Counted from the stretch's first letter, positions 11,383-42,160 are shown. The stretch: DNA of 64,000 nucleotides from an uncultured Bacteroidota bacterium (GCA_963767125.1 CAVYDB010000020.1:80548-144547), one strand, 5' to 3'. A program made the numbers and translations. Notes: generated by a model from the letters alone, not told the origin.

Positions 11383-13050
11383 ATGAGAACAAAAACTTTT
11401 TCTTCCTTGACCATGTTAGCAGCAGGCTTATTTGCCTTTTCTGCAACAGCCCTGCATGCACAGGTGGGTATTAATAGTACGGCTGCAAATCCCGATGCTT
11501 CTGCCATACTTGACTTGAACACTGGCAATGCAGGTGTTAATAAAGGCTTTTTACCTCCACAGGTTGCTTTAACAAATGTTGCCACGGCAGCACCCGTTAC
11601 TACGCCTGCAACAGGTCTTATAGTTTACAGTACTTCTGCCCCTACAGGTGGCGACGGGACAGGATATTATTACTGGAACGGTACCGGGTGGATAGGAATA
11701 GCCGGAGGGTCAGCGGGCGCCATTGGCGGTTCCGGAATAAATGGTTATGTAGCCATTTGGACCCCAAACGGAACCACACTTGGTACAGGTTCTATACAGG
11801 ATGATGGCGCTGAAATTGGTGTAGGTACTACTCCCAATTCTGGTACAGAAATATGGGCGATGGGAGTGAATGAAGCAGTTTATGGAGAAGCAACTGATGC
11901 TAGCGGGGGGTATGCCGGTGTTTTCGGAAGAGATGACGGCGGTGGTCCTGGTACATACGGAACTTCTGTCTCTGGTCCCGGTGTTTGGGGGGTTGCTACA
12001 ACTACCGGTGTGCGCGGTGATGGTGATACTGCAGTAGCTGCGTATGGTTACTATAATGGCATTACAGCTTATGGGCCTAATTACGGAATTTATGCCTCAT
12101 CTCCTGCAGGCTGGCCTGTATTTGCTATTTCGCCCGGATCTGAAGAAGGTGTTTTCGGTGAATGTGACGGTTCAAACGGATGGGGTGTAAATGGATATTC
12201 ACAAGGTGCTACCGGTATAGGTGTTGTTGGTGAAGATGATGCTGCGGCAGGGTATGGAGTAGAAGGTACTTCTGGTAGCGGTATAGGAGTATATGCTGCT
12301 GGTGGAACTTATGGGAGTTATTCTGTGGATGCTAATGCTGATTACCTCATAGGTGGCCACCCGGCAGATGCATCTGCTGGTTATTTTAATAATGCCAATG
12401 GGGATTATGGATGGCTTGCCTATGGTACTTTAGATGAAGGTGGTTATTTTGAGGATGCCGGTGGCGATTATTCCTATATTTCTTACGCAGGATATGGAAT
12501 TCTTTCAAATGGAACAAAATCCACAGAAGTGAAAGATGAAAACAACCAGGAAAGAGTATTATTCTGTGATGAGTCTCCAGAAGTTGTATTTCATGATTAT
12601 GGAACTTCCCAACTTGTAAATGGAAAGGTTCATATCAACCTGGATCCCCTATATTCAAAAACGGTAGCCATTAATGAAAAACATCCATTGCGCGTTATGG
12701 TTACCTTGAATGATGAATGTAATGGAATATTTGTTAAAAACCGTACTGCTACCGGTTTTGATGTTATTGAGTTAAATCATGGCACATCCAATGCTCAATT
12801 TACGTATGAAGTAATTGCAAACCGTGCAGATACTAAAAATGCCAAGGGTGAAGTATATGATTATTCTAACTGGCGTTATCCTGTTGGTCCTGGTAGCCAG
12901 GCAAAGCCAACCCAAACTGCTTTACAACCTAATGTAACTAAAAAGAGACCAGTTGCATCAACCAATATTCATGGAGTCAATAAAGGTGAAAAAAGAGATT
13001 TACGTGCAGGCTTATTGCCCGGGCAGACTTCTTCACCCGGTAAGAATTAA
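11383..13050 (+). CDS. Secreted Gly/Tyr-rich repeat protein, cassette gene A1 (conserved ends, variable core)
   Basis: 555 aa. Signal peptide MRTKTFSSLTMLAAGLFAFSATALHA. N-domain motif SAILDLN..NKGFLPPQV..GLIVYS..GYYYWNGTGW, as in many Bacteroidota tail-fibre-like hypotheticals. Core of degenerate G-x-G-V/Y rungs. C-domain ESPEVVFHDYGTSQLVNGKVHI...ATGFDVIEL.HGTSNAQFTYEVIANR. No T9SS sorting domain. Confidence 0.85.
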   Translation: MRTKTFSSLTMLAAGLFAFSATALHAQVGINSTAANPDASAILDLNTGNAGVNKGFLPPQVALTNVATAAPVTTPATGLIVYSTSAPTGGDGTGYYYWNGTGWIGIAGGSAGAIGGSGINGYVAIWTPNGTTLGTGSIQDDGAEIGVGTTPNSGTEIWAMGVNEAVYGEATDASGGYAGVFGRDDGGGPGTYGTSVSGPGVWGVATTTGVRGDGDTAVAAYGYYNGITAYGPNYGIYASSPAGWPVFAISPGSEEGVFGECDGSNGWGVNGYSQGATGIGVVGEDDAAAGYGVEGTSGSGIGVYAAGGTYGSYSVDANADYLIGGHPADASAGYFNNANGDYGWLAYGTLDEGGYFEDAGGDYSYISYAGYGILSNGTKSTEVKDENNQERVLFCDESPEVVFHDYGTSQLVNGKVHINLDPLYSKTVAINEKHPLRVMVTLNDECNGIFVKNRTATGFDVIELNHGTSNAQFTYEVIANRADTKNAKGEVYDYSNWRYPVGPGSQAKPTQTALQPNVTKKRPVASTNIHGVNKGEKRDLRAGLLPGQTSSPGKN

Positions 13051-13075
13051 TTTTAATGTTTAAAATTAAAACGAC

Positions 13076-14071
13076 ATGAAAAAGTATATAGGCCTAATAA
13101 TAGGGTTGCTTCCGTTACTATCGTCAGCGCAATTAGTAATTAATAGCGGGGACTATGTGGTGATAAACGGGAGTGCAGCCAGCCCATCGGGTATGGTATT
13201 GACCAATGCTGCGACTACAGCGATTACCAATGCAAGCACGGGCTGGATTATCACTAACAATGATTATAGTTTTGTGCAGTGGAATATAGGAACAGGAACG
13301 GGGATATACCGTGTCCCGTTTGGTTATTCCACTACCGACTATCTTCTTTTAACGTTCCAGGTAACAGCGGCAGGCGTGGGGAATGGAGTAGTTAAATTCT
13401 CGAGTTATCATGGTTCCAATTGGGACAATGCAGCATACGAGCCTTCTGATGTTACTACGTTGAGTGACTTTGGAGCGGGGGACTATTCAGTAAATATGGT
13501 TGACCGGTTTTGGAATATAGATGCGAATAGCGGATATACGACCAAGCCGACGGTGAACATGAAGTTTAGCTATATCAATAGTGGTGCAGGAGCAGAAGTA
13601 TCGGCGCCGAATTATATAGTGAACAATGCGTTGATAGCCCAGCGTTTCAATTCCAGTTCGGATGTATGGGACGACTTTTTGGGAAGTACGGGGACTCAGC
13701 TGACATCGGGAAATGTAGCAACTGTTTCGAGCGGTTCGGTATCACCGGCCGATTTATTCCGTTCGTGGACAGTAGCGAATGATTCTAACCTGATAACAAA
13801 TGTTGGGGTAGTTTCTGTTGCATCATCCAATCTTACTATCTGGCCCAGTCCGGCTACCCAATGCATTAATGTAAAATTCGGAGCGGGGTTAAGTGGGGAT
13901 GCAGTAATAAGTGTGGTAAATGTAATAGGGCAGGAATTAATCAGGAAAAGCCAGTATATATCTACAGGTATGATACTTCCTATAGATATTTCCACGTTGC
14001 CGGCTGCGATGTATTTTATTCGGGTAAACACGGATAAAACGGAAACAGCCACTAAGTTTATCAAGCAGTAA
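13076..14071 (+). CDS. T9SS-sorted secreted protein, cassette gene B1
   Basis: 331 aa. Signal peptide MKKYIGLIIGLLPLLSSAQ. The last 80 aa or so fit the T9SS type A C-terminal sorting domain (LTIWPSPATQCINVKF..VISVVNVIGQEL..IDISTLPAAMYFIRV..KFIKQ). Confidence 0.85.
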   Translation: MKKYIGLIIGLLPLLSSAQLVINSGDYVVINGSAASPSGMVLTNAATTAITNASTGWIITNNDYSFVQWNIGTGTGIYRVPFGYSTTDYLLLTFQVTAAGVGNGVVKFSSYHGSNWDNAAYEPSDVTTLSDFGAGDYSVNMVDRFWNIDANSGYTTKPTVNMKFSYINSGAGAEVSAPNYIVNNALIAQRFNSSSDVWDDFLGSTGTQLTSGNVATVSSGSVSPADLFRSWTVANDSNLITNVGVVSVASSNLTIWPSPATQCINVKFGAGLSGDAVISVVNVIGQELIRKSQYISTGMILPIDISTLPAAMYFIRVNTDKTETATKFIKQ

Positions 14072-14194: not shown

Positions 14195-14202
14195 TATATT
14201 TG
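14195..14202 (+). promoter_or_regulatory. -7 box TATATTTG for cassette copy 2
   Basis: TAnnTTTG match 34 nt upstream of the ATG at 14236. Confidence 0.4.
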
Positions 14203-14235
14203 TATTCTAATTGTTTAACCCTAAAATTAATAACT

Positions 14236-15933
14236 ATGAGAACAAAAACTTTTTCTTCCCTGACAATGTTAGCAGCAGGCTTATTCGCCTTTACTGCAAC
14301 AGCCCTGCATGCACAGGTGGGTATTAATAATACCGCTGCAAACCCGGATGCTTCTGCCATACTTGACTTAAATACAGGTAATGCAGGTGTGAATAAAGGC
14401 TTTTTACCCCCACAGGTTGCTTTAACAAATGTTGCCACAGCAGCACCCGTTACTACTCCGGCTACAGGTCTTATTGTATATAGTACCGCTGCCCCTACAG
14501 GTGGTGACGGAACAGGATATTATTATTGGAATGGTACCGGGTGGGTAGGTTTGGCGGGAGGTTCCGCTGGAGCTATTGGAGGTTCCGGAGTTGATAATTA
14601 CGTTGCACGCTGGACTCCCAATGGAACTACATTGGGTACCGGCTTAATACAGGACAATGGCACCGGTGTAGGAGTAAATAGCGCACCTGTGGCTGGTAAC
14701 CTGGTGTATGCAAGCGGTACTACCGGTATAGCAGTTAATGGCACTTCTGATACCGGTGTAGCCGGGTATAGCGCCACTAACATGGGCGTTGTTGCATATT
14801 CTTTGCTAAACGATGGGGTTTGGGCTAATGCCGATTATGGTGGTGTTTATGGAAATGGGTATAACGGATACGGAGTTTGGGGACAAGATGGAATGGGCGA
14901 TGAGGCAATTTTAGCATGGGATTATTATGGAACCTATGGTTATGGTCTTTATTCAACAGGGGTAAACTATGGAGTTTACACTACTGCATCGGCAGCTGCC
15001 GGCGTAGGGGTTTATGCATCTGGCGATACAGCCATAAATGCCTATGGCAGTTGGAATGGAATAGATGCATATTCCGCTAATAACGATGGTATCTCAAGTA
15101 AAGGCCTCTGGGGCGGTGTATATGCATCGGGTGATAACTATGGGCTTTTTGGGTATGGTTCAAATTATGGAGGTATATTTGAAGATCCGAACGGCGATGA
15201 GGCTGTATTGGCATATAATTCTTCTGAACTTGGTATTTATTCTTATGGTTTAAGTTCCGGAGGTTACTTTGTCGATGGAAACTATGATGTAGCCACCAGT
15301 GGCGGAGATTATGCCTATATAGCTTATGGACCTTCTGCCGCAGGCGCTTATTTTGAAGATGATGCCGGCGATTATGTTTATGACGCGTATGCAGGATACT
15401 CAAATTTTGGTTCAGGACCGAAAAATACCATAGTAAAAGATCAAAGCGGACAATACCGTGCTATGTCTTGCCCCGAGGCGCCTGAAGTGCTGTTTCAAGA
15501 TTATGGTACATCCCAATTGGTAAATGGAAAAGTTCATATTGAGTTGGACAAAACGTTTGCTTATACTGTTTGCATTAATGAAAAGCACCCCCTTCGCGTT
15601 ATGGTTACCTTGAATGATGCTGATTGTAATGGAGTAGCAGTAATCAACAGGTCGGCTACAGGTTTTGATGTAGTGGAATTAGCTCATGGTACCTCCAATG
15701 CTTCATTTACGTATGAAGTGGTTGCCAACCGTGCCAATACAAAGACCCATAAAGGAGTAGCAAGAAATTATGCTGATATACGCTACAACGATGCTCCAGG
15801 ACCTTTGGCAAGACCAAAACAAGCCAGCAGTTTAACCCAAACCCCCAATAACCCAAACAGGAGTGAAGGGAAGCACTTTAGCATGACTGCAAAGCCAAAG
15901 CCAAGTCCTACCGCTACACAAGGTAAAAATTAG
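14236..15933 (+). CDS. Secreted Gly/Tyr-rich repeat protein, cassette gene A2
   Basis: Start moved to the ATG homologous to A1 (MRTKTFSSLTMLAAGLFAFTATALHA); the track ORF starts at 14200. Same N- and C-domains as A1, but a different and longer core (GVYGNGYNGYGVWGQDGMGDEAILAWDYYGTYGYGLYSTGVNYGVY...). Confidence 0.85.
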   Translation: MRTKTFSSLTMLAAGLFAFTATALHAQVGINNTAANPDASAILDLNTGNAGVNKGFLPPQVALTNVATAAPVTTPATGLIVYSTAAPTGGDGTGYYYWNGTGWVGLAGGSAGAIGGSGVDNYVARWTPNGTTLGTGLIQDNGTGVGVNSAPVAGNLVYASGTTGIAVNGTSDTGVAGYSATNMGVVAYSLLNDGVWANADYGGVYGNGYNGYGVWGQDGMGDEAILAWDYYGTYGYGLYSTGVNYGVYTTASAAAGVGVYASGDTAINAYGSWNGIDAYSANNDGISSKGLWGGVYASGDNYGLFGYGSNYGGIFEDPNGDEAVLAYNSSELGIYSYGLSSGGYFVDGNYDVATSGGDYAYIAYGPSAAGAYFEDDAGDYVYDAYAGYSNFGSGPKNTIVKDQSGQYRAMSCPEAPEVLFQDYGTSQLVNGKVHIELDKTFAYTVCINEKHPLRVMVTLNDADCNGVAVINRSATGFDVVELAHGTSNASFTYEVVANRANTKTHKGVARNYADIRYNDAPGPLARPKQASSLTQTPNNPNRSEGKHFSMTAKPKPSPTATQGKN

Positions 15934-15984
15934 TTTTTTGCCTATTAAAAGCAAAAATTAATGTAACCCATAAATTAAAACGAC

Positions 15985-16980
15985 ATGAAAAAGTATATAG
16001 GCCTAATAATAGGGTTGCTTCCGTTACTATCGTCAGCGCAATTAGTAATTAATAGCGGGGGCTATGTGGTAATAAACGGGAGTGCAGCCAGCCCATCGGG
16101 TATGGTATTGACCAATGCTGCGACTACAGCGATTACCAATGCAAGCACGGGCTGGATTATCACTAACAATGATTATAGTTTTGTGCAGTGGAATATAGGA
16201 ACCGGAACGGGGATATACCGTGTCCCGTTTGGTTATTCCACTACCGACTATCTTCTTTTAACGTTCCAGGTAACAGCGGCAGGCGTGGGGAATGGAGTAG
16301 TTAAATTCTCGAGTTATCATGGTTCCAATTGGGACAATGCAGCATACGAGCCTTCTGATGTTACTACGTTGAGTGACTTTGGAGCGGGGGACTATTCAGT
16401 AAATATGGTTGACCGGTTTTGGAATATAGATGCGAATAGCGGATATACAACCAAGCCGACGGTGAACATGAAGTTCAGCTATATCAATAGTGGTGCAGGA
16501 GCAGAAGTATCGGCGCCGAATTATATAGTGAACAATGCGTTGATAGCCCAGCGTTTCAATTCCAGTTCGGATGTATGGGACGACTTTTTGGGAAGTACAG
16601 GGACTCAGCTTACATCGGGAAATGTAGCAACTGTTTCGAGCGGTTCGGTATCACCGGCCGATTTATTCCGTTCGTGGACAGTAGCGAATGATTCTAACCT
16701 GATAACAAATGTTGGGGTAGTTTCTGTTGCATCATCCAATCTTACTATCTGGCCCAGTCCGGCTACCCAATGCATTAATGTAAAATTCGGAGCGGGGTTA
16801 AGGGGGGATGCAGTAATAAGTGTGGTAAATGTAATAGGGCAGGAATTAATCAGGAAAAGCCAGTATATATCTACAGGTATGATACTTCCTATAGATATTT
16901 CCACGTTGCCGGCTGCGATGTATTTTATTCGGGTAAACACGGATAAAACGGAAACAGCCACTAAGTTTATCAAGCAGTAA
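15985..16980 (+). CDS. T9SS-sorted secreted protein, cassette gene B2
   Basis: 331 aa. Differs from B1 at two residues (D26G, S->R in GAGL[S/R]GD). Same T9SS sorting domain. Confidence 0.85.
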   Translation: MKKYIGLIIGLLPLLSSAQLVINSGGYVVINGSAASPSGMVLTNAATTAITNASTGWIITNNDYSFVQWNIGTGTGIYRVPFGYSTTDYLLLTFQVTAAGVGNGVVKFSSYHGSNWDNAAYEPSDVTTLSDFGAGDYSVNMVDRFWNIDANSGYTTKPTVNMKFSYINSGAGAEVSAPNYIVNNALIAQRFNSSSDVWDDFLGSTGTQLTSGNVATVSSGSVSPADLFRSWTVANDSNLITNVGVVSVASSNLTIWPSPATQCINVKFGAGLRGDAVISVVNVIGQELIRKSQYISTGMILPIDISTLPAAMYFIRVNTDKTETATKFIKQ

Positions 16981-35254: not shown

Positions 35255-36838
35255 TTATTTCTTATATTTTTTAGCTAAATCAGATGCAACTTTTTCAAGT
35301 GTAGCAACCACATCATCGGGTAGTTTACCTGCTTTCAATTCGGCTAATACATTTTTATGCTGTGCTTCTAATATCCCTAAATATTCTGTTTCAAATTCTT
35401 TTACTTTATCAAAGGAACATCCCTTAATAAGCCTTTAGTTCCGCAATAAATAATAGCAACTTGTTTTTCAACCGTCATCGGAGAATATTGGGCTTGTTTT
35501 AAGATTTCCACGTTACGTGAACCTTTATCAAGTACATATTTGGTAGCAGCATCAAGATCGGAACCGAATTTGGAGAAAGCTTCCAACTCACGGTATTGTG
35601 CCTGGTCAAGTTTCAAAGTACCGGCTACCTTTTTCATTGATTTAATCTGCGCATTACCACCCACACGCGATACCGAGATACCCACGTTAATAGCAGGGCG
35701 TACACCGGCGTTAAAGAGGTTGCTTTCCAAGAATATCTGTCCGTCGGTAATAGAAATAACGTTGGTAGGGATATATGCTGATACGTCACCTGCCTGTGTT
35801 TCAATAATAGGCAATGCTGTTAATGAACCACCGCCTTTTACCAAATGCTTTAATAGATGGAGGCAAGTCATTCATATTGCTTGCAACGCTCTGGTCAGCA
35901 TTAATTTTAGCAGCACGTTCTAATAAACGGGAGTGCAGATAAAATACATCACCCGGATATGCCTCACGTCCCGGAGGGCGGCGAATAAGAAGTGATACCT
36001 CACGGTAAGCTACAGCTTGTTTTGATAAATCATCATAAATAATCAAAGCAGGACTGCCTGTATCGCGGAAAAACTCGCCCATAGCAGCACCTGCAAAGTG
36101 GAGCAAAGAACTGCATAGGAGCAGGATCAGCAGCGCTGGCGCAAACAATAATAGTATATGCCATAGCGCCGTTTTCTTCCAGTGTACGTAATACGTTAGC
36201 AACGGTAGAGCTCTTTTGGCCGATGGCCACATAAATACAATATACAGGTTGTCCTTTTTCGTAAAATTCTTTTTGGTTGATGATGGTATCAATAGCAATA
36301 GCGGTTTTACCGGTTTGGCGGTCACCGATAATCAACTCACGTTGTCCGCGTCCGATTGGAATCATGGCATCAATAGGCTTTAATACCTGTTTGCAGTGGT
36401 TCGTTTACCGGCTGACGGTAAATTACACCCGGAGCTTTACGTTCCATAGGCATTTCATACAGTTTCGCCTGTAATAGGGCCTTTTCCGTCAATAGGATTG
36501 CCCAAGGCATCTACTACCCTGCCCAACAAACCTTCGCCTGCTTTAATGGAAGCAATTTTTCCGGTACGTTTTACGGTAGCACCTTCTTTAATATCTCCTG
36601 AAGGACCAAGTAATACAAGCCCTACGTTATCTTCTTCAAGGTTAAGGGCAATACCTTTTAATCCGTTTTCAAATTCTACAAGCTCTCCTGCCTGAACACT
36701 GTTCAATCCGAAAACACGGGCAATACCATCACCAATTTGCAGAACGGTTCCAATTTCTTCCAGTTCTGTTTCGGTTTTAAATCCTGATAATTGTTCGCGT
36801 AATATTGCAGATACTTCTGCCGGTTTTATTTCAGCCAT
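35255..36838 (-). pseudogene. atpA: F-ATP synthase subunit alpha, at least 5 single-base indels
   Basis: Pieces 36455..36838, 36033..36365 ([30 protein letters not shown]), 35801..36325 (…[29 protein letters not shown]), 35401..35871 ([36 protein letters not shown]) and a tail to the TAA at 35255-35257. Total 1584 nt. Confidence 0.9.
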
Positions 36839-36852
36839 GACTTTATTGATAA

Positions 36853-38379: not shown

Positions 38380-39435
38380 TTATTTAAAGTTAAAGAATCC
38401 ATGATTTAGTGATGTTCTGTCTTCTTCGGTTGCCATTCCGAAATAAATTGCCGATAAAAGAGTAAACACATAAGCTTGTATAAGTGAAACTAATAACATC
38501 AAGCAGCAAGCATACCTACTGAAAAAGCCACCGAAAATACAGAAGTTGCATATCCGGCAAAATGTCCCCATAAGCCTCCAAAGATGAATATAAGACTGAA
38601 AGAAGGAAAGAGCTACAATATGCCCTGCAAGCATATTGGCAAATATCCGAATCAGCAGGGTGAAGGGCTTTAAAATAATACCCAAGGTTTCAATAGGGCC
38701 AAGAATCAAATATTTTAACCCAGGCAGGAACACCGGGCATCCATAAGGTATGAGACCAGTAAGTATTTGCCCGAATAAACCATCATTGGTATAAAGGTAA
38801 AGAAAGCAAGGGTCAATGGTGATAGCAATGTTACCTGTAACGTTAGCCCCTCCGGGGAAGAATGGAATCAAGCCCTAACATATTCAGCAACAGGATAAAG
38901 AAGAACAGCGTAAGCAGGTAGGGCATGAACTTTTCATATTTATGTTTGCCAATACATGGGATGGCAAAATCATCGCGAATAAATACGATAATAGGTTCAA
39001 AAAAAGATTGTATTCCTTTGGGAGCACTTAACCCACCGTTGCTGATATGCTTTGGCAACACCCAACATCAATATTAATAAGCAATAACCCCGACAATACA
39101 ATGGTACAGGCGATTTTAGTAAGTGAAAAATCCCAGAGTTTAGCGGTTTCTTCCTTATTTATTGAACCATCGGCGTTAACAGCTACAATATGCTGACCGT
39201 TCATTTTGTAGCCATTATACATGGCTCCGTCATTCAGTTTATTGGAACAGAATACAGAAAGCCCGTGGTTTTGAGAATACAATATAATAGGAAGCGGGAT
39301 AGAAAGATCGCCTGCAATATGCCAGCTATGAGAATCGCTTACGTGCTCTAATATCATATCTCCTGCATTGAATGCCTTGCCTGTTTCTTCTGCAGCAAAA
39401 ACAACCGAAGGAATGGCAAAAAGCAACGCAACCAT
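38380..39435 (-). pseudogene. atpB: F-ATP synthase subunit a, frameshifted
   Basis: Pieces 39028..39435 (signal-like N-part with a periplasmic extension), 38843..39061 and 38380..38871 (…LLIRIFANMLAGHIV…LIQAYVFTLLSAIYFGMA). The exact 3' end is uncertain; an alternative frame ends …TEHH. Confidence 0.8.
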
Positions 39436-39550: not shown

Positions 39551-39709
39551 ATCTTCATTTTAAGACTGTGAATAAGTTTTGATAAAAGAGGAGAACAGTT
39601 TCTCGCCAAGACGCAAAGGCGCGAAGGAAATACATTATTACTTTGCGGGCTTGGCGTCTTTGCGAGACCCGAATTTCCTAATCTTCAGCTTAAGAGTCTG
39701 AATAAGTTT
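39551..39709 (+). repeat. Structured intergenic element: direct repeats flanking an inverted repeat
   Basis: DR ATCTTCATTTTAAGACTGTGAATAAGTTT (39551-39579) and ATCTTCAGCTTAAGAGTCTGAATAAGTTT (39681-39709). Between them is IR TCTCGCCAAGACGC (39601-) / GCGTCTTTGCGAGA (-39667). Core TTTCCTTCGCGCC.TTTGC and AGCCCGCAAAGT recur inverted at 41865-41991. Confidence 0.65.
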
Positions 39710-39982: not shown

Positions 39983-40068
39983 AAATTAATCTCTCTGTTA
40001 GCAATGAGCAAAGTCATGCTGAACTTGGTTCAGCATCGCAAATTTCTATTATTGGATTTCCTCTATGA
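39979..40068 (+). pseudogene. Truncated remnant of the cognate ParE/RelE-like toxin
   Basis: ATGA overlap with the antitoxin stop. The frame opens MKINLSVSNEQ (compare MKI.fS..A..dL of ParE-type toxins) but runs only 29 codons, into a palindromic repeat and the 3' end of the convergent helicase gene. Confidence 0.4.
40016..40036. terminator. Palindrome ATGCTGAAC-TTG-GTTCAGCAT between convergent genes
   Basis: Perfect 9-bp stem 13 nt beyond the helicase stop (40049). It belongs to the GTCATGCTGAAC...-type short palindromic repeat class seen elsewhere in the window. Confidence 0.4.
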
Positions 40069-41605
40069 ATTTTGATGTTTTGCCATTATATTTCTTTTTC
40101 CAATGTATATATTTGAACTGTCCCATGTCAGCTTTGTTACTTTTTAAATCAGAACCACTCCACTCTACAGTAGAGACTAAATATAATTCTTTCATGGCTC
40201 TTGTCATACCTACAAATAAGAGCCTCCTTTGTGCTTCGATGGTGTCTATTCCAAATGTCTCATTGGGTAATATCCCTTGAACAAGACCATTAATGATAAC
40301 ATATTCAGCCTGTAGCCCCTTAGATTTGTGAATTGACATGAGATTTATCTTACCCTTTTCAAATTCGTTATTGACTCTTATCTCATTTGTTAAGTTTATA
40401 ACACTTCTTTCAACGTCAGATTCATCAATATACTCCACTATATAACTAAATTCACTATATTTCTGCATAAACTCTTTAATTGAAATTGGAGAAACAACTA
40501 AGGTTGTAAATTCTTTCGGAAGAATATCAAACTTAAATATTTCCCGAATAATAACTGATTCTTTAAACCCTATATGAAAAGATTCGCTTAATAAATTAAT
40601 AAGTCTCTTATTATTATGTTTACCGTAGTATTTAAGAAGAAATAATAAGAATGGTAGCTTTATCTTGCCATAAATAACATTTAGCCACCATATCTTACAT
40701 AGAGTATCCATATCCCATTTTTTACTCCAACAGTCGACATAATCTTGACCCTTCTCATCCATTAGTTTTTTGAGATCATTCACTACAAAACCAATACTAC
40801 TTAGTATGAGGATACTACCCTGTTTATCAAGCTCTCTAATGGACTTAATAATAGATAATATATAATTATCACAGTCTATTTGTGTCGATAATTGTTCAAT
40901 AGATAATGAGCCATCCTTATTTGATTTTTTCCATTCTTTCGGTATTCTCTTTTTATTTTTTTGTAAAAGTTTACTGCAATAATCAACTATTTCATCAGGG
41001 CATCGATAACAAATATTATCGTGTTCAATTTTTTCTATTTTTTCATTCTGATAAAGTGAGATTATTCCATCAGGTGCGGCATCTTTAAATCCATAGATGG
41101 ATTGATCATCATCTCCTAAAATAATCGTTTCAGAGGCGATTTCAGATATAAGCATTATTAGTTTTTGCTCGTCAGAATTGAAATCTTGAAATTCATCGAC
41201 CAAAAACAAGTCCAACTCACCTATCTTATCTTTAGCGTAGGCTTTGTTCGCTTTAATAAAAGACACACAACTTGCAATCATTGCTTCATACGTAATACAT
41301 TGTAAATATTCACATATTGTTGCAAAATCAATGTCCAATTTTTTTGCAAAATATTCTAAAGTTTCTTTTTCAGGTTTATTATCAAGTACATGTAAATTAG
41401 GCAAATGATTCATCATAAACGCGAAGCTATGTAACGTTGAGCAGGAAACTCTTTTATCATCTGCAAAATCCTTTAACAAGTCCTTTATTGTTGCATTAGT
41501 AAATGAAAGCACTTGAATTTTTTTTGCTTCAGAATAATCTGAGGCAATTATCCTTTTTATCTTCGTTGTTTTGCCAGTTCCTGGTCCTGCAAGTAAAATT
41601 TTCAT
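40049..41605 (-). CDS. Compact stand-alone SF1 UvrD/Rep-like helicase
   Basis: 518 aa, starting directly at Walker A (MKILLAGPGTGKTTK). Motifs: Ia LSFTNATIKDL, II LFLVDEFQDFN, III IILGDDDQSIYGFKDA, IV ICYRCPDEIV, V LMSIHKSKGLQAEYVIINGL, VI EAQRRLLFVGMTRAMKELYL. No extra nuclease or other domain is evident. A hand count of a 100-nt sample gives about 27 percent GC, versus about 47 percent in lpdA. Confidence 0.85.
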   Translation of the reverse strand: MKILLAGPGTGKTTKIKRIIASDYSEAKKIQVLSFTNATIKDLLKDFADDKRVSCSTLHSFAFMMNHLPNLHVLDNKPEKETLEYFAKKLDIDFATICEYLQCITYEAMIASCVSFIKANKAYAKDKIGELDLFLVDEFQDFNSDEQKLIMLISEIASETIILGDDDQSIYGFKDAAPDGIISLYQNEKIEKIEHDNICYRCPDEIVDYCSKLLQKNKKRIPKEWKKSNKDGSLSIEQLSTQIDCDNYILSIIKSIRELDKQGSILILSSIGFVVNDLKKLMDEKGQDYVDCWSKKWDMDTLCKIWWLNVIYGKIKLPFLLFLLKYYGKHNNKRLINLLSESFHIGFKESVIIREIFKFDILPKEFTTLVVSPISIKEFMQKYSEFSYIVEYIDESDVERSVINLTNEIRVNNEFEKGKINLMSIHKSKGLQAEYVIINGLVQGILPNETFGIDTIEAQRRLLFVGMTRAMKELYLVSTVEWSGSDLKSNKADMGQFKYIHWKKKYNGKTSKFIEEIQ

Positions 41606-41676
41606 TTGATAAAAATAGGTAAAATATACAATCCAAATTAAGGGATGGAATAGTTTTTATTCCTATCATATGCATT

Positions 41677-41856
41677 ATGACCTTTAAAGAGAAATACAAG
41701 AAATTCCAAAACCTGAACTATGTTGTCAATATGATAACTAAATCAGTGTATGATACCATGCACCTTGAGGGACAGGGTTTACCAGAAGCTGAGATAAAGG
41801 AGCTTGTTAAGAAAGTGATGGCAGAGCCAGAGCCTACTTTACGAGTTCCTTTGTAA
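41677..41856 (+). CDS. VbhA-like small antitoxin ORF (59 aa, below the track cutoff)
   Basis: MTFKEKYKKFQNLNYVVNMITKSVYDTMHLEGQGLPEAEIKELVKKVMAEPEPTLRVPL. TMHLEG fits the [S/T]xxxE[G/N] Fic-inhibitory helix motif, and the context resembles VbhA (ALASQRLEGLEPDPQVV). Divergent from the helicase start (71-nt spacer). Confidence 0.45.
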   Translation: MTFKEKYKKFQNLNYVVNMITKSVYDTMHLEGQGLPEAEIKELVKKVMAEPEPTLRVPL

Positions 41857-41864
41857 GTATATTT

Positions 41865-41991
41865 TCTTTGCGTGCTTTCCTTCGCGCCCTTTGCCTGAAC
41901 CTGTGTTTAAATCCCAAAGTCTTCACGCCCGTCCGAAAGGTCATCCGGGCAGGCAAAGAACGCTAAGAAACAGCCCGCAAAGTTCGCCAAG
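41865..41991 (-). repeat. Inverted copies of the left-flank repeat families
   Basis: TTCTTTGCGTGCTTTCCTTCGCGCCCTTTGCC (41865-41896) and CACGCCCGTCCGAAAGGTCATCCGGGCAGG...CAGCCCGCAAAGTTCGCCAAG (41925-41991) match the reverse complements of 39601-39667 and 33903-33966. Confidence 0.55.
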
Positions 41992-42160
41992 TAAAAGCCA
42001 TACTGATTTAGAAAGTTACTTGAATACCAAAACCTTATCTTCTTCCCCAAAACCCAATGACTAAAAACCGAAGTAAACTGCTAACATAATGTAGCTCAAT
42101 ATAGTATACTTTCTATTCGTACCTTATAATCTGTGAATCTGTGGCTTACCTCCCAAAAAA

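Follow-up and report, generated by a model that had tools for sequence, protein, structure and literature searches.

A compact UvrD-type helicase from an uncultured Bacteroidota bacterium: a plausible anti-phage module with mostly solitary relatives

Helicases in Modular Defense Systems

In known defense systems, helicases nearly always operate together with a linked nuclease or toxin. The modular use of UvrD-type helicases in defense has already been described (PMC13069673; bioRxiv 10.1101/2025.09.15.676423): type II Gabija combines GajB with a MazF-like GajC, and DarHTG contains the DarH helicase (PMC13069673), while in type II ARMADA systems ArmD is a helicase fused to a RelE-like RNase. 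The embedding of HEPN and helicase genes in restriction-modification (R-M) operons is likewise a long-known pattern (PMC3710099). Here, we analyze a compact helicase of the superfamily 1A (SF1A) UvrD type, encoded in a 64,000-nucleotide (nt) stretch of DNA from an uncultured Bacteroidota bacterium (GCA_963767125.1, CAVYDB010000020.1:80548-144547; hereafter, the window). We propose, with a probability of about 0.5, that this gene belongs to a modular defense-island helicase family and is present here as a single-gene cassette. The same family is lone and intact in the window and elsewhere plugged into Type I, IIG, and III operons or placed before HEPN or PD-(D/E)XK effectors, offering a test case for whether a helicase sensor/motor module can act alone or in trans and for how modules are swapped between systems. 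A preliminary description of the window, made from its sequence without database searches, had suggested that a single-gene helicase effector or sensor, or one acting with the adjacent small ORFs, would be a configuration not known as described; this is not supported, as modular defense use of such helicases is in print. We found no literature on GajB-like helicases that are orphan or solitary. Neither the fold nor the general theme is new; what appear to be undescribed are a discrete, mostly solitary family of ~515 amino acids (aa), its Q-motif-less start, and a motif IV that reads CYRC and is accompanied by conserved His and Cys residues.

A Trimmed Helicase Core

The gene encodes a protein of 518 aa in which sequence reading and alignment locate all seven UvrD motifs (Table 1), as the preliminary description had it. 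Pfam recognizes the helicase core only (UvrD-helicase, E 8e-19; UvrD_C, E 8.5e-18; AAA_19). Residues K12, E138, Q140, Q168, R201, R220, and R469 are kept in 24 of 25 aligned full-length members, the exception being L203, which has G at R201. An active NTPase and helicase that depends on DNA is almost certainly what the gene encodes. Its N-terminus reads MKILLAGPGTGKT, so that just six residues lie ahead of motif I and the Walker A loop runs from residue 7, in keeping with the earlier remark that the protein begins directly at this loop. Upstream of the ATG only 17 further codons are open, and every aligned relative has the same start; we therefore take the Q-motif helix found at the N-terminus of UvrD, Rep, and PcrA to be truly absent.

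The AlphaFold2 model, for which 23 sequences were aligned, is confident (pLDDT 88; pTM 0.80) and has the four-subdomain 1A/1B/2A/2B fold common to UvrD, Rep, and PcrA (PDB 2is2, 2is4, 1uaa, 3pjr, and 4c2t). In a Foldseek search of the PDB, the best matches are DNA-bound UvrD, Rep, and PcrA (E ~1e-24; TMq 0.75-0.77), and ranks 1-23 are all UvrD, Rep, PcrA, or UvrD1; a sequence-profile search of the PDB gives UvrD, PcrA, and Rep, with no GajB among its matches at 1e-5. Domain bounds, set from the ranges aligned with Deinococcus radiodurans UvrD together with the secondary structure of the model, place domain 1B at ~residues 60-129 and an all-helical domain 2B at ~residues 291-414; both are retained in shortened form, lacking roughly 60 and roughly 50 residues, respectively. 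The chain stops at an SKFIEEI motif closing domain 2A. It thus ends on the same S(K/R)FxxEI motif as UvrD, Rep, and PcrA but is 130-200 residues shorter than these proteins, with neither their Q-motif helix nor their C-terminal extension. The reduction of 1B and 2B and the loss of the extension had been foreseen correctly and the word minimal is apt, whereas the claim that there are no accessory domains holds for the two termini but not for 1B and 2B. Motifs and modeled fold place the protein in the SF1A UvrD/Rep/PcrA-like superfamily.

Closer assignments fail. Scores of about one-tenth of the NCBIfam equivalog cutoffs (UvrD, 92 versus 1144; Rep, 109 versus 951; PcrA, 100 versus 911; helicase IV, 66 versus 543) rule out an ortholog of UvrD, Rep, PcrA, or helicase IV, and the HelD cutoff is likewise missed (33 versus 419). 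UvrD, Rep, and PcrA are core genes, whereas the window gene is a sporadic accessory one. Pfam finds no nuclease domain in the polypeptide, whose chain ends at the close of domain 2A; since only the helicase core is recognized, a helicase-nuclease fusion of the Nhi-like, UvrD-Cas4, or AddA/RecB kind is ruled out.

Motif IV departs from the usual pattern: UvrD has NYRS where the window helicase has CYRC. Around it, H195, C199, C202, C55, and C103 are conserved throughout the family, whose HxNxCYRC stands against the NYRS of UvrD and GajB, and CxRC also occurs in two more distant helicases (L230 and L262). This cluster could form a metal or redox site.

A Small, Sharply Bounded Family with an Old Solitary State

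An exhaustive phmmer search against 1.84 billion cluster representatives (50% identity) returned only 46 proteins at E<=1e-30, ~27 of them full length (511-540 aa) and matching in one end-to-end stretch; beyond the family comes a drop in score, to generic UvrD-like proteins of 600-660 aa whose matches fall into three separate stretches. By these measures the family is discrete and sharply bounded. The full-length relatives retrieved by a word-indexed search measure 511-536 aa, are 44-63% identical to the window protein, and come from Bacteroidota, Chloroflexota, Parcubacteria, Edwardsbacteria, Dadabacteria, and soil and water metagenomes. An initial motif scan of contigs was dominated by generic UvrD motifs and contributed only three true members.

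Though present in many phyla, the family is rare, sporadic, and horizontally transferred. No member was found in 17 same-genus or 23 same-class genomes, and a same-phylum sample of 400 genomes yielded a single copy, broken by stops; this copy (L273:6189-7746, in G298:C3) is split into 331-aa and 159-aa pieces and is either a pseudogene or an assembly frameshift. At E<=1e-20, there was no tblastn match in 72,556 plasmids and no match in 50,697 phage records. The 2.9 million viral contigs of IMG/VR, scanned with the patterns GDDDQSI and DE[FY]QDFN, both invariant in the family, likewise held no member, the best match being generic and 26-30% identical. With no match in any of these collections, we rejected a plasmid, integrative and conjugative element (ICE), or phage origin of the gene as well as its identity with a phage-encoded UvrD-like helicase.

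In a maximum-likelihood tree, the family forms one well-supported clade, from which two helicases with a GajA-like gene directly upstream, L035 and L036, are separated by branch lengths of 3.9 and 2.4 substitutions per site. The members embedded in R-M operons make up a clade of their own, together with L204. The window gene groups (support 98) with L081, L083, L086, L093, L190, and L200, which are mostly solitary, and solitary members also make up almost all of two further clades. Because the clade of the window gene is mostly solitary and L199, a member linked to an OLD-family gene, is nested among solitary ones, the solitary state is an old one here, common in this region of the tree and not the result of a recent deletion. 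Purifying selection acts on the solitary pair L086/L093 (84% identical), with a dN/dS of 0.11; the R-M-embedded pair L201/L203 gives the same value, 0.11.

Defense Genes beside the Relatives

For 27 family loci with flanks, open reading frames (ORFs) were called, and the neighbors were compared all-versus-all and annotated. No neighbor gene is conserved across these loci; ~40% of them have a recognized defense gene within 3 kb. The preliminary description had asked whether homologs are enriched near defense genes and whether their small neighbors recur: the neighborhoods are defense-enriched, and no small ORF recurs.

Many members are solitary, lying between housekeeping or unannotated genes (L001, L003, L081, L086, L190, L193, L196, L198, L200, and others). 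Others sit inside R-M operons, after Type III Mod-Res in L002, a Type IIG Eco57I-like gene in L201 and L203, and methylases in L209 and L210. L202 has a Type I operon with the order hsdM, a 162-aa ORF, hsdS, helicase, and hsdR; on this metagenome contig (Ga0265297_10006695), the helicase thus lies between hsdS and hsdR, where PrrC sits in the EcoprrI locus. Directly downstream of the helicase come genes for predicted nucleases, namely, Abi_C in L083 and L201, the HEPN proteins Ymh in L203 and AbiV in L210, and PDDEXK_1 in L209. Helicase-Abi_C is the only recurring gene pair among the 27 loci and is found in two distant branches of the family, one of its two representatives being L083, the nearest relative of the window gene, in which Abi_C lies 35 nt downstream; it is possible that the two genes form a module. 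The two HEPN-type Abi_C genes (L083:9601-10422 and L201:7601-8434) are 56% identical and lie 2-35 nt after the helicase. Shedu genes stand beside the helicase in L083 and L093, and an OLD-family ATPase-TOPRIM gene in just two of the 27 loci, upstream in L204 and downstream in L199. Partner-less, the term applied earlier to the window gene, is not true of the family as a whole, subsets of which sit in R-M operons, upstream of HEPN or PD-(D/E)XK genes, or, in two cases, beside OLD.

Gabija and Other Described Relatives

GajB (Bacillus cereus VD045; PDB 8sm3, 8jqb, and 8iud) is of similar size, ~500 aa, and has a UvrD-like core without a nuclease domain. GajB profiles are also the best matches of the window helicase in the PADLOC defense library (PDLC00117, E 2.6e-42, 143 bits), although these hidden Markov models span a very wide range of UvrD-like proteins. 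The resemblance to GajB noted at the outset is a loose one: in the tree, canonical GajB falls far away as an outgroup, and in the fold search it comes well behind UvrD (8sm3_B, rank 34, TMq 0.34). No gajA lies at the window locus, none was found in the assembly (79% complete), and 25 of the 27 family loci have no OLD partner. Membership in Gabija was rejected, as the gene neither adjoins gajA nor groups with the GajB proteins of gajA-gajB operons.

By description, type II Gabija, DarHTG, and ARMADA offer another likeness, since each joins a UvrD-type helicase to an interchangeable RNase or toxin, much as family members precede Abi_C, Ymh, AbiV, or PD-(D/E)XK genes; the helicases of these systems, however, need a linked or fused effector, which the window gene lacks, as does most of its clade. 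Within the family, the members of the R-M clade are placed in their operons as known R-M accessory genes are (PrrC-type NTPase-HEPN, solo Ymh, UvrD-Cas4 by Type III Mod/Res), with HEPN or Cas4-like PDDEXK_1 genes next in line. The helicase described here is a separate gene, not fused to a nuclease, and the window copy lies outside R-M operons.

A Possible Role and Its Alternatives

We posit that the window gene is a plausible anti-phage module, a mostly stand-alone variant of the modular GajB-like defense helicases. Its product would be an active SF1A DNA helicase or translocase powered by ATP, moving 3'-5' by analogy with UvrD. Some relatives would have the helicase joined in cis with restriction enzymes or with an RNase or DNase encoded downstream (Abi_C, Ymh, AbiV, PD-(D/E)XK, or OLD), and in most relatives, as in the window, it is a single-gene cassette; the window copy may have arrived in this genome as a low-GC piece of ~1.6 kb between toxin-antitoxin remnants and repetitive extragenic palindromic (REP)-like repeats beside the atp operon. 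The helicase could load on single-stranded DNA, DNA ends, or replication intermediates of invading DNA and then either (i) interfere directly, through unwinding, protein stripping, or NTP burning as reported for GajB, or (ii) hand the DNA to unlinked host nucleases. Since it stands alone in this genome, it would act by itself or with unlinked nucleases. A bolder version, in which a bare ~515-aa helicase without nuclease, partner, or Q-motif would be a complete anti-phage or anti-plasmid system by itself, we regard as doubtful; such a solo system might work by DNA-end-triggered NTP consumption or by dismantling the replication intermediates of the invader, and the His/Cys site of the family might gate the helicase activity.

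Several points weigh against a defensive role. In studies of Gabija, GajB alone reportedly gave no protection, and with this precedent a lone helicase is not an obvious effector. The 35 kb around the window gene are housekeeping. Some 60% of the family loci have no recognizable defense gene within 3 kb, in a 27-locus sample that is small and largely metagenomic, and the HEPN or R-M genes found at the others could be independent add-ons accumulating in the same slots. The defense role of the family is, moreover, read from sequence and context.

A gene without a partner could also be a functionless orphan of a multigene system (Gabija or class 2 OLD plus helicase, helicase plus HEPN, or an R-M operon) from which the partner was deleted. 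Such a history would accommodate the OLD-family neighbors of L204 and L199, the Abi_C gene just downstream of the helicase in L083, the broken state of the sole other copy in the phylum sample, and the presence of other debris at the window locus, an antitoxin without a toxin; it is at odds with three clades, that of the window gene included, whose almost entirely solitary members point to an old state, with a full-length ORF that keeps every catalytic residue, and with the dN/dS of 0.11 for the solitary pair. Neither the OLD TOPRIM domain (PF20469), for which control genomes gave matches, nor an Abi_C homolog was found in the assembly, which is 79% complete, and the flanks are too short to conceal a decayed partner. 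These findings led us to reject a decayed Gabija locus, an outcome that the preliminary description had named as one that would count against it, and also an Abi_C partner in trans; an orphan of any kind seems to us very unlikely. We think it improbable as well that the gene serves the maintenance, replication, or transposition of a mobile element, be it an ICE, an integrative element, or single-stranded DNA transposition of the Y1/REP type. The gene moves horizontally, REP-like repeats flank the window copy, and three relatives keep suggestive company: L216 lies beside TraG_N and TraD/TrwB, the sole such locus of the 27, L107 near an integrase and phage-like genes, and L108 next to a Y1 transposase. 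Family members do not, however, share a recurrent relaxase, Rep, or integrase neighbor; the plasmid and phage searches at E<=1e-20 and the scan of viral contigs yielded no member; and the REP-like repeats occur throughout the genus irrespective of the helicase. A relaxase-associated helicase of conjugative or mobilizable elements, the other outcome named beforehand as adverse, was discarded with no match in 72,556 plasmids and one TraG/TraD neighborhood in 27.

The remaining alternative is an accessory DNA-repair paralog of UvrD, acquired horizontally and active, for example, in damage excision or fork rescue. Its fold most resembles that of UvrD, Rep, and PcrA, and a few relatives lie among genes that would suit such a task, L108 just after a Pyr_excise (T4 endonuclease V-type) gene, L003 after ruvB, and L095 among DinB-family genes. 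These neighbors do not recur, though, and the extreme sporadicity of the family is unlike a repair function, and the genome already has a 777-aa UvrD-like gene elsewhere. The C-terminal extension, which tethers UvrD and PcrA to their partners, is missing from the window helicase, and the low NCBIfam scores for UvrD, Rep, PcrA, and helicase IV also speak against a repair paralog, to which we assign little probability. If it is not defensive, the gene would simply be another uncharacterized accessory UvrD paralog. The probability left over by the modular defense helicase and these alternatives covers something that we have not considered.

The Locus and Its Surroundings

The gene was correctly described as monocistronic, with neither an OLD/TOPRIM gene nor any other partner: its neighbors are an antitoxin gene and a 59-aa ORF, and annotation of the 35 kb around it revealed no R-M operon in or near the helicase. 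These 35 kb contain the atp operon, lpdA, transhydrogenase, yidC, rplS, signal peptidase, and ybeY genes and a gene for a protein with a type IX secretion system (T9SS) tail. The GC content is 0.307 at 40-41 kb versus ~0.39 in the surroundings. Helicase-specific DNA amounts to only ~1.6 kb, a single-gene cassette among toxin-antitoxin debris and REP-like repeats (Table 1). In no related genome do the atp and lpdA flanks lie side by side, so that no empty site can be demonstrated.

Table 1. Features of the helicase, its gene, and the flanking DNA (positions in the window unless given as residues; aa, amino acids)
Feature	Position	Strand	Remarks
Palindromic REP-like repeat	39594-39669	.	Multicopy in the genus; lies at the left edge of the low-GC islet
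Orphan antitoxin gene, PF09720 Unstab_antitox / TIGR02574	39758-39982	+	Convergent with the helicase gene
Palindrome ATGCTGAAC-TTG-GTTCAGCAT	40016-40036	.	9-bp stem; 12 nt past the helicase stop
Compact SF1A UvrD-type helicase gene	40049-41605	-	518 aa (P0001); from ORF, motifs, Pfam, and fold model
AT-rich spacer	41606-41676	-	71 nt; upstream of the helicase start; presumed promoter region
59-aa ORF	41677-41856	+	Matches no family; divergent from the helicase gene, 71 nt upstream
Cluster of short repeat modules GCGCGAAGGAAA, ACTTTGCGGGCT	41860-41998	.	Inverted orientation; right edge of the islet
Motif I, GPGTGKT	residues 7-13		All motifs: sequence reading and family alignment
Motif Ia, SFTNAT	residues 34-39		
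Motif II, DEFQD	residues 137-141		
Motif III, GDDDQSIYGF	residues 164-173		
Motif IV, CYRC	residues 199-202		
Motif V, SIHKSKGLQ	residues 424-432		
Motif VI, VGMTRA	residues 465-470		

The antitoxin gene ends 66 nt downstream of the helicase. In a same-genus genome, its homolog is followed by an ORF read as RelE/ParE-like (no Pfam match); homology of the window to that locus ends at the antitoxin stop codon, and the following gene is gone. The 59-aa ORF has homologs in two same-genus genomes without the helicase; one of them, in G003, overlaps a 176-aa ORF on the opposite strand. The window ORF contains TMHLEG, a string consistent with the motif (S/T)xxxE(G/N) through which Fic antitoxins inhibit; the idea of a VbhA-like Fic antitoxin was dropped for want of a Pfam match even at E 5. 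With both small genes present in same-genus genomes that have no helicase, the suggestion that the helicase acts with the adjacent small ORFs is not supported, and such ORFs were rejected as partners; no small ORF of at least 30 aa recurs near family members even at E 0.05.

The divergent spacer lies where it had been placed. Within it, TTAATTTG, ~33 nt before the helicase ATG, resembles, by eye only, the Bacteroidota -7 box; a scan for sigma-70 promoters and terminators gave counts equal to those in shuffled sequence. The palindrome after the stop codon is present too, although its spacing is 12 nt and not the 13 nt given before. It is the core of a repeat of ~30-35 nt (about 40009-40044) that recurs, at 93-97% identity, dozens of times in the genus, and is a REP-like element or possible bidirectional terminator that is not specific to the helicase. 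This palindromic repeat occurs in all larger same-genus genomes (for example, G000:C15:79621-79651, G004, G006, and G016), and the ~70-nt repeat at the left islet edge is scattered in the same way; both look like a REP-like system of the genus. The modules at the right edge are the same as those of the left edge and are genus-wide. A structured RNA near the helicase was considered and rejected. The sub-threshold Rfam match to RF03531 (40164-40252, minus strand; 33 bits versus a cutoff of 65), a small RNA inside a Clostridioides difficile helicase gene, covers the region coding for motif VI and is most likely a coding-sequence similarity; the other match is a chance microRNA on a REP repeat.

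Frame breaks are common in the neighboring genes of this assembly, and small-ORF calls around the helicase need care. Several housekeeping genes are affected (35400-36840 and 38380-39061, minus strand, and ~46-52 kb): the reading of atpA is split over at least four segments in different frames and that of atpB over two, and two ORFs each match PNTB and YidC_periplas. These broken genes reflect either many assembly indel errors or gene decay; the helicase gene and lpdA are intact, unlike their frame-broken neighbors. Elsewhere in the window, 11383-14071 and 14200-16980 hold consecutive gene pairs of 555 + 331 aa and 577 + 331 aa, each with a same-sized antisense ORF, in an apparent tandem duplication.

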